Below, piece after piece: positions 22,724 to 30,334 of a stretch of 64,000 nucleotides of DNA. The first letter of the stretch is position 1, and every line of letters starts with the position of its first letter. The translations under genes were made by a program, and so were the position numbers. The stretch is from Escherichia coli (lineage in GTDB: Bacteria > Pseudomonadota > Gammaproteobacteria > Enterobacterales > Enterobacteriaceae). The notes under the pieces are model-generated. The model saw nothing but the letters and a program-made list of their open reading frames with translations, searched no databases and was not told the origin of the DNA. The stretch lies in the NCBI RefSeq assembly GCF_003334815.1, contig NZ_QOWO01000011.1. One strand, written 5' to 3'.

Positions 22724-23629
22724 ATGCGTCGAACGTTTATCAAAAAAGAAGGCGTCGTCATCACGACGCTGGCCCGTTATTTGTTGGGTGAAAAGTGCGG
22801 TAATCGATTGAAAACCATAGATGAGCTGGCAAATGAATGCCGTTCATCCGTTGGCCTGACGCAGGCCGCGTTGAAAACGCTGGAATCAAGCGGAGCGATA
22901 CGGATTGAACGCCGTGGGCGCAATGGCAGTTATCTGGTCGAGATGGATAACAAAGCATTGCTGACTCATGTGGATATCAACAACGTGGTATGTGCAATGC
23001 CCTTGCCCTATACCCGTTTGTACGAAGGCCTGGCGAGCGGATTGAAAGCCCAGTTTGATGGCATTCCTTTTTACTATGCGCACATGCGTGGCGCGGATAT
23101 TCGCGTGGAGTGTCTGCTTAATGGCGTGTATGACATGGCGGTGGTTTCGCGACTAGCGGCGGAAAGTTATCTCACGCAAAAAGGCTTATGCCTCGCGCTG
23201 GAGTTGGGGCCGCACACCTACGTTGGCGAGCACCAGTTGATTTGCCGTAAAGGCGAGTCCGCAAACGTGAAGCGCGTGGGGCTGGATAACCGTTCGGCGG
23301 ATCAGAAAATCATGACCGATGTTTTTTTTGGCGGTAGTGATGTGGAACGAGTCGATCTCTCTTATCACGAGAGTTTACAACGCATTGTTAAAGGCGATGT
23401 CGATGCGGTGATCTGGAACGTGGTGGCGGAAAACGAACTGACCATGCTGGGATTAGAGGCGACGCCGCTCACAGACGATCCGCGATTTTTACAGGCCACC
23501 GAAGCCGTGGTCCTGACGCGAGTCGATGATTACCCAATGCAACAACTGCTGCGTGCCGTTGTAGATAAACACGCCCTGCTCGCCCATCAACAACGGGTAG
23601 TGAGTGGGGAACAGGAACCGAGTTATTAA
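22724..23629 (+). CDS. yhfZ: Putative transcriptional regulator: N-terminal winged-HTH plus a ligand-binding-like C-terminal domain
   Basis: 301-aa ORF. The N-terminus (LARYLLGEKCGNRLKTIDELANECRSSVGLTQAALKTLESSGAIRIERRGRNGSYLV) looks like a wHTH. Recognised as YhfZ. Confidence 0.85.
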   Translation: MRRTFIKKEGVVITTLARYLLGEKCGNRLKTIDELANECRSSVGLTQAALKTLESSGAIRIERRGRNGSYLVEMDNKALLTHVDINNVVCAMPLPYTRLYEGLASGLKAQFDGIPFYYAHMRGADIRVECLLNGVYDMAVVSRLAAESYLTQKGLCLALELGPHTYVGEHQLICRKGESANVKRVGLDNRSADQKIMTDVFFGGSDVERVDLSYHESLQRIVKGDVDAVIWNVVAENELTMLGLEATPLTDDPRFLQATEAVVLTRVDDYPMQQLLRAVVDKHALLAHQQRVVSGEQEPSY

Positions 23630-23645
23630 ACGAAAGGCATCTGAT

Positions 23646-24008
23646 ATGGAAACCAGACTCAACCTGCTTTGCGAGGCAGGCGTTATTGATAAGGACATCT
23701 GCAAAGGCATGATGCAGGTCGTCAACGTACTGGAAACAGAGTGCCATCTGCCGGTGCGCAGTGAGCAAGGAACGATGGCGATGACACATATGGCGAGTGC
23801 ACTGATGCGCAGTCGCCGTGGTGAAGAAATAGAGCCGCTGGATAACGAGTTGCTGGCAGAACTGGCGCAATCCAGCCACTGGCAAGCCGTTGTGCAATTG
23901 CATCAGGTGTTGTTGAAGGAATTCGCACTGGAAGTTAACCCGTGTGAAGAAGGCTATTTGCTGGCCAACCTTTATGGATTATGGATGGCTGCTAACGAAG
24001 AGGTTTGA
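23646..24008 (+). CDS. yhfY: Stand-alone PRD-domain-like protein
   Basis: 120 aa from METRLNLLCEAG. All-helical composition with a conserved His context (MAMTHMASAL). The 14-codon upstream extension was rejected. Confidence 0.8.
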   Translation: METRLNLLCEAGVIDKDICKGMMQVVNVLETECHLPVRSEQGTMAMTHMASALMRSRRGEEIEPLDNELLAELAQSSHWQAVVQLHQVLLKEFALEVNPCEEGYLLANLYGLWMAANEEV

Positions 24009-24091
24009 AGCTCCCGACAAATCCACGTCGCACAACCTAAATATTCAAAAAAATGAATATTTAATTCAAGGAACAGAAACGAGGCAACAAG

Positions 24092-25255
24092 ATGTTTGTA
24101 GAAGCATTGAAACGCCAGAACCCGGCGCTGATTTCCGCCGCACTAAGCCTGTGGCAGCAGGGCAAGATCGCCCCGGACAGCTGGGTGATCGACGTGGATC
24201 AGATACTGGAAAACGGTAAGCGGCTGATTGAGACGGCGCGGCTTTACGGCATTGAACTGTATCTGATGACCAAGCAGTTTGGTCGTAATCCGTGGCTGGC
24301 GGAAAAATTGCTGGCATTAGGCTACAGCGGCATTGTGGCGGTGGATTACAAAGAGGCGCGAGTCATGCGCCGCGCTGGTTTGCCTGTGGCGCATCAGGGG
24401 CATCTGGTACAAATCCCTTGTCATCAGGTTGCTGACGCCGTTGAACAGGGCACCGACGTCATCACCGTGTTTACTCTCGACAAAGCGCGGGAAGTTTCTG
24501 CGGCGGCGGTGAAGGCCGGGCGAATCCAGTCTGTGCTGCTTAAAGTTTATAGCGACGATGATTTTCTTTATCCGGGCCAGGAGAGCGGTTTTGCCCTCAA
24601 GGTGTTGCCGGAGATTGTCGCCGAAATCCAGAATCTGCCAGGGCTGCATTTAGCCGGACTTACCCATTTCCCTTGCCTGCTTTGGGATGAGGCTGTCGGA
24701 AAAGTTTTGCCGACACCGAATCTTCACACGCTGATACAGGCACGGGATCAACTGGCGAAATCTGGTATTGCACTTGAGCAACTGAACGCGCCTTCAGCGA
24801 CCAGCTGCACTTCGCTGCCATTACTGGCGCAATACGGTGTGACTCATGCCGAACCCGGTCATGCGCTGACGGGCACTATTCCGGCAAACCAGCAGGGCGA
24901 TCAGCCTGAACGTATCGCGATGCTCTGGTTAAGTGAAATCTCCCATCATTTCCGTGGCGACAGCTACTGCTACGGCGGCGGTTACTATCGTCGTGGTCAT
25001 GCGCAACATGCGTTGGTGTTTACGCCAGAAAATCAAAAGATTACTGAAACCAATCTCAAAACTGTGGATGACAGCAGTATCGACTACACCCTGCCGCTGG
25101 CAGGCGAGTTTCCGGTAAGCAGTGCAGTGGTGCTCTGTTTTCGCACGCAGATTTTTGTCACCCGTAGCGATGTGGTGCTGGTGTCCGGTATTCATCGTGG
25201 CGAACCGGAAATCGTCGGTCGTTATGACAGTCTTGGAAACTCTCTGGGGGCGTAA
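24092..25255 (+). CDS. yhfX: Alanine-racemase-N-like (fold-type III PLP) protein, function unknown
   Basis: 387-aa ORF recognised as YhfX. The stop overlaps the yhfW start (TAATG). Confidence 0.85.
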
Positions 25256-26481
25256 TGGCGCGATTTGTGGTGTTAGTGATTGATAGCTTTGGCGTAGGGG
25301 CAATGAAAGATGTCACGCTGGTGCGTCCGCAAGATGCGGGAGCGAATACATGTGGTCACATCCTGAGCCAGTTGCCGCATTTGCAGCTACCAACGCTGGA
25401 GAAGCTGGGGCTAATCAACGCATTGGGTTATGCGCCAGGCGATATGCAGCCGTCAGATTCCGCAACCTGGGGCGTGGCAGAGCTGCAACATGAAGGTGGC
25501 GATACCTTTATGGGGCATCAGGAAATTTTAGGCACGCGCCCGTTACCGCCGCTGCGGATGCCTTTTCGCGATGTGATTGACCGTGTTGAGCAGGCATTAG
25601 TTTCCGCTGGCTGGCAGGTGGAGCGCCGTGGCGATGATCTGCAATTTCTGTGGGTCAATCAGGCGGTTGCGATTGGCGATAATCTCGAGGCGGATTTAGG
25701 CCAGGTCTATAACATTACCGCCAATCTCTCTGTGATCTCTTTTGACGACGCAATCAAAATTGGTCGTATCGTGCGTGAGCAGGTACAGGTCGGTCGGGTC
25801 ATTACATTTGGTGGCCTGTTAACCGACAGTCAACGCATTCTCGATGCCGCAGAAAGCAAAGAAGGGCGCTTTATTGGTATCAATGCGCCGCGTTCTGGCG
25901 CTTATGACAACGGTTTCCAGGTCGTGCATATGGGCTATGGCGTCGATGAAAAAGTGCAGGTGCCACAAAAACTGTATGAAGCAGGCGTGCCAACCGTGCT
26001 GGTGGGTAAGGTGGCAGATATCGTCAACAATCCTTATGGCGTGAGCTGGCAAAATCTGGTGGATAGCCAGCGGATTATGGATATCACCCTCAACGAATTT
26101 AACACCCATCCGACGGCGTTTATTTGCACCAACATTCAGGAAACCGACCTCGCTGGTCATGCAGAAGACGTCGCACGTTATGCCGAACGTTTGCAGGTCG
26201 TTGACCGTAACCTTGCCCGGCTTGTTGAGGCGATGCAGCCAGATGATTGCCTGGTCGTGATGGCGGATCACGGCAACGATCCGACCATTGGTCACAGCCA
26301 CCATACCCGCGAAGTGGTGCCAGTGCTGGTTTATCAGCAAGGGATGATCGCTACGCAGCTCGGTGTGCGCACCACGCTTTCTGATGTGGGGGCTACCGTG
26401 TGTGAATTTTTCCGCGCGCCACCGCCACAAAATGGTCGCTCTTTTCTTTCCTCCCTCCGGTTTGCAGGAGACACCCTATGA
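25255..26481 (+). CDS. yhfW: Phosphopentomutase-like metalloenzyme (alkaline-phosphatase superfamily)
   Basis: 408 aa with N-terminal [12 protein letters not shown] and C-terminal MADHGNDPT motifs like DeoB. Confidence 0.87.
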
Positions 26482-27356
26482 GTTTTGATCCGACGGGTTA
26501 CACCCTCGCCCATGAGCATCTGCATATTGATCTCTCCGGCTTTAAAAACAACGTGGACTGCCGCCTTGATCAGTATGCGTTCATTTGCAAGGAGATGAAC
26601 GACCTGATGACCCGGGGCGTGCGTAATGTGATTGAGATGACCAACCGTTACATGGGGCGCAATGCGCAATTTATGCTTGATGTAATGCGCGAGACGGGGA
26701 TCAACGTGGTGGCCTGTACCGGTTATTACCAGGACGCGTTTTTCCCGGAACATGTGGCGACCCGCAGCGTGCAGGAACTGGCGCAGGAGATGGTCGATGA
26801 AATTGAACAGGGTATCGATGGCACGGAGCTGAAAGCCGGGATCATCGCGGAGATCGGCACCAGCGAAGGAAAGATTACGCCGCTGGAAGAGAAGGTATTT
26901 ATTGCCGCTGCGCTGGCGCATAACCAGACCGGACGCCCGATCTCCACGCATACGTCGTTCAGCACGATGGGGCTGGAGCAACTGGCGTTGCTACAAGCCC
27001 ACGGGGTTGATCTTTCGCGCGTCACCGTTGGTCACTGCGATCTGAAAGACAACCTCGACAACATTTTGAAGATGATCGATCTCGGCGCGTACGTGCAGTT
27101 CGACACCATCGGCAAGAACAGTTACTACCCGGACGAAAAGCGTATTGCGATGCTTCATGCGCTACGCGACCGTGGGTTGCTGAACCGCGTCATGCTGTCG
27201 ATGGATATTACGCGCCGCTCCCATTTAAAAGCCAACGGTGGTTATGGCTATGACTATTTACTAACCACCTTTATTCCGCAATTGCGCCAGTCAGGATTCA
27301 GTCAGGCCGATGTGGATGTGATGTTACGTGAAAATCCCTCTCAATTTTTCCAATAA
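26478..27356 (+). CDS. php: Phosphotriesterase homology protein (amidohydrolase superfamily)
   Basis: 292 aa with N-terminal HxH metal ligands ([12 protein letters not shown]). 4-nt ATGA overlap with yhfW. Confidence 0.92.
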
Positions 27357-27366
27357 GGACAGACTC

Positions 27367-27720
27367 ATGAAAAAGATTGGCGTTGCAGGCTTACAGCGTG
27401 AGCAGATTAAAAAAACTATTGAAGCGACGGCTCCTGGCTGTTTTGAAGTTTTCATTCACAACGACATGGAAGCGGCAATGAAGGTGAAATCCGGGCAACT
27501 GGATTATTACATCGGCGCGTGTAATACCGGTGCGGGCGCGGCATTGTCGATTGCCATCGCGGTGATAGGCTATAACAAAAGTTGCACCATTGCCAAACCA
27601 GGCATTAAAGCGAAAGACGAGCATATCGCCAAAATGATCGCTGAAGGAAAAGTGGCGTTTGGCCTTTCCGTTGAGCACGTCGAACACGCGATTCCGATGC
27701 TGATTAACCATCTGAAATAA
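27367..27720 (+). CDS. yhfU: Small soluble protein of unknown function
   Basis: 117 aa from MKKIGVAGLQREQ. The 13-codon upstream extension overlapping php was rejected. Confidence 0.8.
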   Translation: MKKIGVAGLQREQIKKTIEATAPGCFEVFIHNDMEAAMKVKSGQLDYYIGACNTGAGAALSIAIAVIGYNKSCTIAKPGIKAKDEHIAKMIAEGKVAFGLSVEHVEHAIPMLINHLK

Positions 27721-27731
27721 AAGGCACGACT

Positions 27732-29036
27732 ATGGATCTGTATATTCAGATTATCGTGGTGGCGTGCCTGACGGGTATGACATCGCTTCTGGCGCATCGC
27801 TCGGCGGCTGTTTTTCATGACGGCATCCGCCCGATCCTGCCGCAACTGATTGAAGGCTATATGAACCGTCGCGAGGCGGGGAGTATCGCTTTTGGTCTGA
27901 GCATTGGTTTTGTGGCCTCGGTGGGGATCTCTTTTACCCTGAAAACCGGGCTGCTCAACGCATGGTTACTCTTTCTTCCTACCGATATCCTCGGCGTCCT
28001 GGCGATAAACAGCCTGATGGCGTTTGGTCTTGGCGCTATCTGGGGCGTGTTGATCCTTACTTGCCTGTTGCCAGTAAACCAGCTGCTGACCGCGCTGCCG
28101 GTGGATGTATTAGGTAGCCTGGGGGAATTAAGCTCGCCGGTGGTTTCAGCTTTTGCACTGTTCCCGCTGGTGGCGATTTTCTACCAGTTTGGCTGGAAGC
28201 AAAGTCTGATCGCCGCCGTGGTGGTACTGATGACCCGTGTGGTAGTCGTGCGCTATTTCCCACATCTTAACCCTGAATCCATCGAAATCTTTATTGGCAT
28301 GGTGATGCTGCTGGGGATCGCGATAACTCACGACCTGCGTCATCGTGATGAAAATGACATTGATGCCAGCGGGCTTTCGGTGTTTGAAGAACGCACGTCA
28401 CGGATTATCAAAAACTTACCCTATATCGCCATCGTGGGAGCATTGATTGCCGCCGTTGCCAGCATGAAGATTTTTGCTGGCAGTGAAGTGTCGATCTTCA
28501 CACTGGAGAAAGCATATTCCGCAGGCGTAACGCCGGAACAATCGCAAACGCTGATTAATCAGGCGGCTCTGGCAGAATTTATGCGCGGACTGGGGGTTGT
28601 GCCGTTGATTGCCACCACCGCGTTAGCAACGGGTGTGTATGCAGTTGCGGGCTTTACCTTTGTTTATGCGGTGGGCTATCTCTCGCCGAATCCGATGGTT
28701 GCAGCGGTATTAGGCGCAGTGGTTATTTCGGCGGAAGTCTTGCTGCTTCGTTCGATCGGCAAATGGCTGGGACGCTACCCGTCGGTGCGTAATGCGTCGG
28801 ATAACATCCGTAACGCCATGAATATGCTGATGGAAGTGGCGCTGCTGGTCGGTTCGATTTTCGCAGCAATTAAGATGGCGGGTTATACCGGATTCTCTAT
28901 CGCGGTTGCCATTTACTTCCTCAACGAATCCCTGGGCCGTCCGGTACAGAAAATGGCGGCACCGGTCGTGGCAGTAATGATCACCGGTATTCTGCTGAAT
29001 GTTCTTTACTGGCTTGGCCTGTTCGTTCCGGCTTAA
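27732..29036 (+). CDS. yhfT: Polytopic membrane protein, putative transporter
   Basis: 434 aa, hydrophobic throughout (about 10-12 predicted helices by eye). Confidence 0.85.
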   Translation: MDLYIQIIVVACLTGMTSLLAHRSAAVFHDGIRPILPQLIEGYMNRREAGSIAFGLSIGFVASVGISFTLKTGLLNAWLLFLPTDILGVLAINSLMAFGLGAIWGVLILTCLLPVNQLLTALPVDVLGSLGELSSPVVSAFALFPLVAIFYQFGWKQSLIAAVVVLMTRVVVVRYFPHLNPESIEIFIGMVMLLGIAITHDLRHRDENDIDASGLSVFEERTSRIIKNLPYIAIVGALIAAVASMKIFAGSEVSIFTLEKAYSAGVTPEQSQTLINQAALAEFMRGLGVVPLIATTALATGVYAVAGFTFVYAVGYLSPNPMVAAVLGAVVISAEVLLLRSIGKWLGRYPSVRNASDNIRNAMNMLMEVALLVGSIFAAIKMAGYTGFSIAVAIYFLNESLGRPVQKMAAPVVAVMITGILLNVLYWLGLFVPA

Positions 29037-29047
29037 GGAAGGCACCT

Positions 29048-30183
29048 ATGAAGACGTTTCCTCTGCAAAGCCTGACGATTATTGAGGCGCAGCAAAAGCA
29101 GTTTGCGCTGGTGGATAGCATTTGTCGCCATTTCCCCGGCAGCGAGTTTCTTACTGGCGGTGATTTAGGCTTAACGCCAGGACTGAATCAACCGCGCGTT
29201 ACCCAGCGTGTGGAACAGGTGCTGGCTGATGCATTTCACGCACAGGCTGCGGCGCTGGTGCAGGGCGCGGGGACTGGCGCGATTCGCGCCGGGCTGGCGG
29301 CTTTGCTCAAACCGGGGCAGCGTCTTCTGGTGCATGACGCGCCTGTTTACCCGACGACACGGGTTATTATTGAGCAGATGGGGCTGACGCGCCTGTTTAC
29401 CCGACGACACGGGTTATTATTGAGCAGATGGGGCTGACGCTTATTACTGTTGATTTCAATGACCTGTCGGCACTGAAGCAGGTCGTCGACGAGCAACAAC
29501 CGGATGCGGCGCTGGTGCAGCATACGCGCCAGCAGCCGCAGGACAGCTACGTGCTGGCAGATGTGCTGGCAACGTTGCGCGCGGCAGGTGTTCCAGCGTT
29601 AACCGATGACAACTATGCGGTGATGAAGGTGGCTCGAATCGGCTGTGAATGCGGCGCGAATGTCTCGACATTTTCCTGCTTCAAGCTATTTGGGCCAGAG
29701 GGTGTTGGTGCAGTGGTCGGCGATGCTGATGTTATCAACCGTATTCGCGCCACGCTTTACTCCGGCGGTAGCCAGATCCAGGGCGCACAGGCGCTGGAAG
29801 TATTGCGTGGTCTGGTGTTTGCGCCAGTGATGCACGCGGTGCAGGCAGGGGTATCTGAACGGTTGCTGGCTTTGCTTAACGGTGGTGCGGTGCCGGAAGT
29901 GAAAAGCGCGGTGATTGCTAATGCGCAGTCGAAGGTGTTGATTGTCGAGTTTCATCAGCCGATTGCCGCCAGAGTGCTGGAAGAGGCGCAAAAGCGCGGT
30001 GCCTTGCCTTACCCGGTGGGTGCAGAGTCGAAATATGAAATCCCGCCGCTCTTTTATCGCCTTTCCGGAACGTTTCGCCAGGCGAATCCACAATCAGAAC
30101 ATTGTGCGATTCGCATTAACCCGAATCGCAGCGGTGAAGAGACGGTGCTGCGGATTTTGCGTGAGAGTATTGCCAGTATTTAA
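29048..30183 (+). pseudogene. yhfS: PLP-dependent-transferase-like gene disrupted by a 50-bp tandem duplication (split into 129-aa and 251-aa ORFs)
   Basis: ORFs 29048-29437 and 29428-30183 are in different frames. Removing one 50-bp copy restores a single 1086-nt ORF. The downstream part carries an SxxK-type PLP-lysine context (FSCFKLFG). Confidence 0.85.
29341..29440. repeat. Perfect 2 x 50-bp direct tandem duplication
   Basis: 29341-29390 and 29391-29440 are the same 50-mer (gcctgtttacccgacgacacgggttattattgagcagatggggctgacgc). The 6 nt before copy 1 (tgacgc) match the end of the unit. Confidence 0.98.
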
Positions 30184-30210
30184 TGCTGGATAGCACCGTC
30201 AAGCTAAATT

Positions 30211-30270
30211 CCGTACTGAACGGTCCCCTCGCCCCTTTGGGGAGAGGGTTAGGGTGAGGGGAACGTACGG
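30211..30270. repeat. GC-rich nested-palindrome intergenic repeat (resembles the Box C family; recollection only)
   Basis: Outer arms are ccgtac (30211-30216) and gtacgg (30265-30270). Inner arms are tcccctc (30224-30230) and gagggga (30256-30262). The core is cgcccctttggggagagggttagggt. Confidence 0.4.
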
Positions 30271-30296
30271 GATGTAAAATTCAACGCGCCAGCATC

Positions 30297-30332
30297 GCCG
30301 GATGCGATGCTGGCGCATCTTATCCGGCCTAC
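30297..30332. repeat. REP element
   Basis: cgccggatgcgatgctggcgcatcttatccggcctac, a canonical REP stem and tail abutting the frlR stop. Confidence 0.75.
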
Positions 30333-30334
30333 GG

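Follow-up and report, generated by a model that had tools for sequence, protein, structure and literature searches.

A frameshifting 50-nt tandem duplication bounded by microhomology in yhfS of an Escherichia coli isolate

The yhfS locus and its duplication

We analyzed a 64,000-nt stretch of Escherichia coli DNA (contig NZ_QOWO01000011.1; hereafter the window), in which yhfS, the last gene of the yhfZ-yhfY-yhfX-yhfW-php-yhfU-yhfT-yhfS cluster, is broken by a tandem duplication of 50 nt (Table 1). The two copies are identical base for base and abut directly, with no spacer between them and no filler at the junction. Tandem Repeats Finder (TRF) delimited the array at 29335-29440, with a period of 50, 2.1 copies, 100% matches and 0 indels. 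The period-50 identity extends to the left of copy 1 by exactly 6 nt, where TGACGC matches the last 6 nt of the unit, and to the right of copy 2 by 0 nt; because of this 6-nt microhomology, the register of the unit is arbitrary within seven positions. Across the 64-kb window, this was the sole perfect tandem duplication with a period of 20-300 and the only sizeable TRF array. Chance is no concern for a perfect 50-nt repeat, and an arbitrary duplication would have 6 nt or more of boundary homology with a probability of ~4^-6 = 2.4e-4.

Since 50 is not a multiple of 3, the reading frame breaks after Thr114, leaving yhfS as two overlapping open reading frames (ORFs). The 5' ORF retains the strong native ribosome-binding site (AAGGAAGG) and encodes a 129-aa product, and the remaining 251 codons begin at an internal ATG. 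Deletion of one copy in silico yielded a single 1086-nt ORF of 361 codons plus stop. The protein encoded by this collapsed gene is identical to K-12 YhfS and, at 361/361 residues (100%, E 2e-235), to PDB entry 4J8L, “Uncharacterized protein YhfS.” The collapsed gene also contains one pair of TGACGC hexamers at a spacing of 50, at nt 288-293 and 338-343. An earlier reading of the sequence by itself (the original prediction) had described the identical copies with their 6-nt microhomology, the division of the gene into 114 native and 15 out-of-frame codons followed by a 251-aa restart, and the 1086-nt ORF that returns when one copy is deleted. Base comparison and TRF confirmed the first of these, and our reconstruction of the frames agreed with the other two.

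Table 1. Coordinates of the duplication, the two yhfS reading frames and the upstream genes in the window
Feature	Position	Strand	Remarks
Microhomology upstream arm, TGACGC	29335..29340	+	Precedes copy 1; both arms also present in the single-copy relative 52F4
Copy 1 of the 50-nt unit	29341..29390	+	Exact identity to copy 2; TRF 100% matches
Copy 2 of the 50-nt unit	29391..29440	+	Junction ...GGGGCTGACGC/GCCTGTTTACC... at 29390/29391
Truncated yhfS 5' ORF	29048..29437	+	129 aa: 114 native codons, 15 out-of-frame codons (RLFTRRHGLLLSRWG), TGA
Downstream yhfS ORF	29428..30183	+	251 aa, MGLTLITV..., starts at the Met111 codon of copy 2
Stop/start overlap, ATGGGGCTGA	29428..29437	+	10 nt; ATG 29428-29430, TGA 29435-29437
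Upstream cluster genes yhfZ, yhfY, yhfX, yhfW, php, yhfU, yhfT	22724..29036	+	All intact, lengths as annotated in 52F4

The break divides the pyridoxal phosphate (PLP)-binding domain between the two ORFs. In Pfam, intact YhfS matches Aminotran_1_2 (PF00155) over residues 52-232 (E 4e-10) and YhfS-like_C (PF22475) over residues 255-354 (E 7.5e-44). The 129-aa fragment scored 17.7 bits against Aminotran_1_2, under the gathering threshold of 19.7 bits, with a match that stops at residue 114, and the 251-aa fragment lost this match altogether while keeping PF22475 (E 4e-44). In particular, the glycine-rich segment QGAGTGAI (residues 72-79) lies on the N-terminal fragment, and the 251-aa ORF holds Asp170/171, the YhfS-like C-terminal domain and the predicted PLP lysine, Lys196 (codon 29683-29685), which we assigned by its alignment with the SGTK Schiff-base lysine of O-succinylhomoserine sulfhydrylase (3NDN). 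Because the cut falls inside the PLP-binding domain, an active site would need to be assembled from two polypeptides, one of them carrying 15 junk residues. After collapse, the sequence gives a full-length match to the YhfS family (fold-type I PLP enzymes, PF22475); as it stands, no uninterrupted ORF covers the whole PLP domain and the allele is disrupted. Judged by this domain architecture, the allele is most likely null or strongly hypomorphic.

We also compared the predicted strength of translation initiation at the two starts. The duplex with the anti-Shine-Dalgarno (anti-SD) sequence was -8.3 kcal/mol at the native yhfS start, in the 2nd percentile of plus-strand ATGs in the window, and -3.2 kcal/mol at the internal ATG at 29428, in the 37th percentile. 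With so weak a Shine-Dalgarno (SD) sequence, any synthesis of the 251-aa product would depend on termination-reinitiation across ATGGGGCTGA. That overlap is the one basis for such a possible coupling, and reinitiation here is hypothetical. All -1 frameshifts upstream end at the same TGA and expose an identical 251-aa ORF. This shared TGA makes the ATG/TGA overlap a by-product of the native sequence and not a peculiarity of the duplication allele, and it accounts for the 251-aa ORF being reported by gene callers on 105 contigs with unrelated lesions.

The remainder of the locus is in order, yhfS being the sole broken gene of the yhf cluster in the window. The cluster is preceded by trpS, and the convergent frlR-frlDCBA genes lie downstream of yhfS; as the last gene of its operon, facing a convergent neighbor, a broken yhfS has no polar effect. 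No Rfam family reached its gathering score anywhere in the window. Between yhfS and frlR, at 30215-30265, there is a GC-rich imperfect palindrome (cccctcgcccctttggggagagggttagggtgagggga) with no Rfam match, which presumably resembles the boxC class of E. coli intergenic repeats.

Distribution of the allele and other lesions of yhfS

The duplication appears private to one assembly among the sequences we searched. The 129-aa product, which is possible only with the duplication, was recorded on a single contig (CBDBYT010000010.1, 111,120 bp, of draft assembly GCA_965212685.1), whose locus is identical to positions 26048-32437 of the window, and the identical intact 361-aa allele was recorded on at least 1,000 contigs. 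We then used megablast against 5,426 complete RefSeq E. coli genomes. Of these, 5,060 carried yhfS at 80% coverage or more, with the best matches spanning 1089 bp, the single-copy length; the other 366 were without yhfS or below 80% coverage. The novel junction was found in none of the 5,426 genomes with a 60-nt probe. A true junction is expected as a one-piece match in the top tier of the probe results, and the 28 matches with full coverage and 100% identity were all two-piece, circularly permuted alignments to a single copy, spanning 54-56 bp. An exact 37-nt junction sequence gave 0 matches in GTDB species representatives and 0 in JGI metagenome contigs.

The junction was also not found in 15 other yhfS loci, comprising 14 with truncated yhfS products and that of strain AST19. 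We had considered that the duplication might occur on another allelic background, and rejected this: ten distinct contexts of the 251-aa ORF and four of a 112-aa fragment lacked the junction and carried other lesions. The comparison with other E. coli yhfS alleles that the original prediction had proposed as a check thus found the duplication absent elsewhere, and no orthologues carrying the same 100 nt in an intact frame were found.

The closest complete genome, 52F4, provides the ancestral state. Over positions 4000-54000 of the window it differs by nine substitutions and by no indel except the 50 nt, of which it has one copy, and it carries both TGACGC hexamers 50 nt apart. Since this 99.98%-identical relative is single-copy, the event post-dates the split from 52F4. 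The divergence between the two copies is zero. Together with the absence of the duplication from all other genomes searched, these observations bear out the earlier claim that the event is very recent.

In the public record of GCA_965212685.1, the two halves are annotated as separate proteins and not as a pseudogene. The 129-aa half, CAM9201593.1, is named “aminotransferase class I/II-fold PLP-dependent enzyme,” and the sequence of the other, CAM9201517.1, equals that of entries named “hypothetical protein” in other records.

Several unrelated lesions of yhfS were seen in other E. coli. In the B/BL21/REL606 lineage, the yhfS match falls into three pieces over 1866 bp, and the annotation places an IS1A transposase there (REL606, NC_012967.1 3432837-3434702; BL21(DE3), NC_012971.2 3364533-3366398). 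These widely used laboratory strains therefore have a yhfS disrupted by IS1. AST19 (NZ_AP043612.1) was the best-scoring odd match to the duplication, and proved to carry an unrelated and independent 44-nt insertion near the 3' end of yhfS (locus L001, 4008-4051, equivalent to yhfS nt 1007/1008), in a gene that NCBI annotates as “frameshifted.” The first 28 nt of this insertion repeat nt 1008-1035 in direct orientation, the last 16 nt (ACCGTCTCTTCACCGC) repeat nt 1034-1049 in reverse complement, and the insertion sits on a natural quasi-palindrome, GCGATTCG...CGAATCGC. From its sequence, it looks like a templated mutation made through a hairpin or a strand switch.

Within its first third, yhfS was found with at least five different 1-nt deletions, most of them in runs of G: at nt 216 (loci L012 and L016), 222 (L010), 267 (L008), 289 (L014) and 333 (L003-L006). 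In all of these loci, the shifted frame runs to one shared TGA and leaves the 251-aa ORF (P0016, 105 contigs) exposed. One further locus (L015) has a premature stop in yhfS without an indel. An allele with G4 reduced to G3 (P0015, 211 contigs) occurs on backgrounds that are 0-23 substitutions away from the allele of the window, and may have come about by repeated slippage, by recombination or by sequencing error in the homopolymer; errors of sequencing may also lie behind some of the 1-nt deletions. This pattern of lesions fits a conditionally dispensable gene under weak selection, and does not itself show selection for loss.

Two candidate patterns near the duplication site were examined and set aside. 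A 155-nt “insertion” in a metagenome scaffold from the European Nucleotide Archive (L011) consists of a 100-N gap (1336-1435) plus 55 nt of overlapping contig ends, corresponding to yhfS nt 266-320, and is an artefact; its position near the duplication site is a coincidence of strain-variant branch points. A run of N also lies inside yhfS in L013. A cluster of similar-length N-terminal fragments suggested a mutational hotspot at codons 105-114, which we rejected as ascertainment bias, the upstream -1 shifts sharing one TGA.

Origin of the duplication and competing explanations

We interpret the allele as a recent, strain-private, microhomology-mediated tandem duplication (MTD) in yhfS, and put the probability of this reading at about 0.85. 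In the single-copy ancestor, a nascent 3' end that had just copied the second TGACGC (yhfS nt 338-343) would have mispaired with the first (nt 288-293), which lies 50 nt upstream, through slipped-strand mispairing on a single template or through a template switch to the sister strand. The intervening 50 nt would then have been copied again to give the tandem duplication. Translation from the native start would now end in the 129-aa product, with the remaining 251 codons placed behind an ATG that has no real Shine-Dalgarno sequence. The same slippage could collapse the repeat to the exact wild type, and such reversibility is a generic property of short perfect tandem duplications, not an evolved switch. 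Slippage or template switching at the microhomology had also been proposed in the original prediction, and is supported by the abutting copies, by the presence of both arms in the single-copy relative and by the identity of the collapsed protein to K-12 YhfS.

Slipped-strand mispairing between short direct repeats is a familiar theme of the older E. coli literature. The closest described counterparts of the yhfS allele are the MTDs of ssp1 in Schizosaccharomyces pombe, which have units of 55, 68 and 92 bp with 5-8-bp microhomology and shift the frame (Dan et al. 2021, PNAS 118:e2019060118, PMC8639346). These form at ~8e-7 and revert precisely to wild type at ~1e-4, and MTDs were detected ~20-fold less often in E. 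coli than in S. pombe (PMC8639346). The yhfS allele resembles them in being a head-to-tail duplication of tens of bases (50 nt), in its GC-rich microhomology of 6 nt, in the identity of its copies and in a frameshift that most likely inactivates the gene. As in the published cases, the copies abut without filler, and the single-copy ancestral allele has both arms, one unit length apart. It differs in that it is the consensus of an isolate assembly, whereas the published MTDs are subclonal, and in that it occurs in E. coli without a known selected phenotype.

The allele can also be placed among ordinary E. coli pseudogenes, sharing with them a disruption of yhfS that is restricted to a strain or lineage and leaves the rest of the operon intact. 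Its mutational class is different, a tandem duplication in place of an insertion sequence (IS) insertion or a homopolymer slip, and, unlike the other yhfS lesions, it can revert precisely by one slippage event. The AST19 gene is annotated by NCBI as frameshifted, whereas the duplication allele is annotated as two proteins.

Several points weigh against our reading. yhfS contains 66 maximal direct-repeat pairs of 6 nt or more spaced 7-200 nt apart, the TGACGC pair among them, and for 36 of the 66 the spacing is not divisible by 3; we therefore rejected the notion that the duplication site is special in its repeat content. A DNA structure promoting the duplication was rejected as well, with no significant fold on either strand against shuffled controls (z -0.7 to -1.3). 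As the site has no predisposing feature, it is the microhomology signature that has to carry the mechanism, just as it is the domain architecture that has to carry the loss of function. We found no functional literature on yhfS, the yhf operon or 4J8L. Finally, the two-copy state comes from a single draft assembly, and the allele was seen nowhere else.

This last point is also what favors an artefact of assembly or library preparation, in which one real copy would have been doubled through an unmerged contig overlap, a mis-resolved graph loop or template switching during library PCR (polymerase chain reaction). Scaffolding artefacts at yhfS do exist in other public records, as the N gaps of L011 and L013 and the 55-nt overlapping contig ends of L011 illustrate. 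The window contains no N, however, and the repeat is gap-free. An unmerged overlap of this size would need an even k of 50, and common de Bruijn assemblers, to our knowledge, use odd k; the overlap in L011 measures 55. An assembler has no reason to set the boundary on a 6-nt microhomology, which would arise by chance at the low rate given above, whereas a polymerase has one. In addition, a single-copy genome contains no junction k-mer, so that a de Bruijn assembler cannot make the junction without reads that carry it, and typical reads are longer than the 106-nt periodic region. Chimeras formed in PCR would make up a minority of the reads and would not set the consensus. Nor is the assembly error-prone: the 50 kb compared with 52F4 hold no further indel, and the 64 kb no further tandem duplication. 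We regard an artefact as unlikely.

We find it highly improbable that the duplication is a selected, reversible on/off lesion, that is, a contingency-like switch maintained because loss of yhfS is advantageous in some niche. A reversible on/off lesion had been raised in the original prediction, and the idea gains some appeal from the precise reversion of 55-92-bp MTDs in S. pombe at ~1e-4 (PMC8639346). Separate E. coli lineages have also inactivated yhfS repeatedly, possibly because its loss is selected, but a conditionally dispensable gene under relaxed selection should be inactivated just as readily, and sequencing errors may account for part of the 1-nt deletions. The allele was on one contig only, and a single pair of 6-nt arms among 66 comparable pairs is not a repeat tract. 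The likeness to contingency loci built on simple sequence repeats (SSRs) is that the frame depends on the copy number of a repeat within the coding region, and gaining or losing one unit turns expression on or off. In SSR loci, a short unit (about 1-10 nt) is reiterated many times, whereas the yhfS unit is long (50 nt) and present in two copies only, and the 5,060 yhfS-carrying genomes showed neither a tract nor copy-number polymorphism at the site. YhfS is also a cytoplasmic PLP enzyme and does not belong to the surface or restriction-modification classes typical of contingency loci. The yhfS duplication thus resembles a contingency locus only trivially, in that collapse brings the frame back, and is not a member of that class. 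The original prediction had offered three outcomes, of which a simple decay step is the best fit.

Bacterial ribosomes are known to terminate and reinitiate over short overlaps, and the stop and start of the two yhfS ORFs both lie within ATGGGGCTGA. Ribosomes ending at the TGA at 29435-29437 might then restart at the ATG at 29428, and the 129-aa and 251-aa fragments, which jointly cover residues 1-361 and overlap by MGLT, might associate into an active YhfS. The suggestion that coupled reinitiation makes two half-proteins fares poorly against the weak SD of the internal ATG, whose duplex of -3.2 kcal/mol is no stronger than that of an ATG picked at random, and against a cut that parts the QGAGTGAI loop from Asp170/171 and Lys196 within the PLP-binding domain. 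The N-terminal fragment would also bear its 15 junk residues, and the same 251-aa ORF follows many unrelated -1 frameshifts, as expected of a native by-product. A functional split enzyme is barely credible on this evidence.

Consequences for annotation and for yhfS

As to annotation, CAM9201593.1 and CAM9201517.1 belong together and should be entered as a single yhfS pseudogene, marked as frameshifted. The allele also gives a clean case of an MTD in nature, carried by all or at least most of the cells of an E. coli isolate. A bolder view would take yhfS as a recurrent target of selection for loss, through IS1, frameshifts, the AST19 insertion and the duplication, and the MTD allele as a natural “temporary knockout” reverting at ~1e-4 to 1e-5 per cell. 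We consider this view very unlikely; if true, it would extend the reversible-mutation phenomenon of fission yeast to a wild bacterial isolate.

As it stands, the allele adds an instance to a textbook class of mutations, in a gene that is often inactivated, and is of little importance beyond annotation. It sheds no new light on what the yhf operon does, and counts as one more case for the dispensability of yhfS. If the isolate can be obtained, the rate at which a 50-bp chromosomal duplication collapses could conveniently be measured in it.

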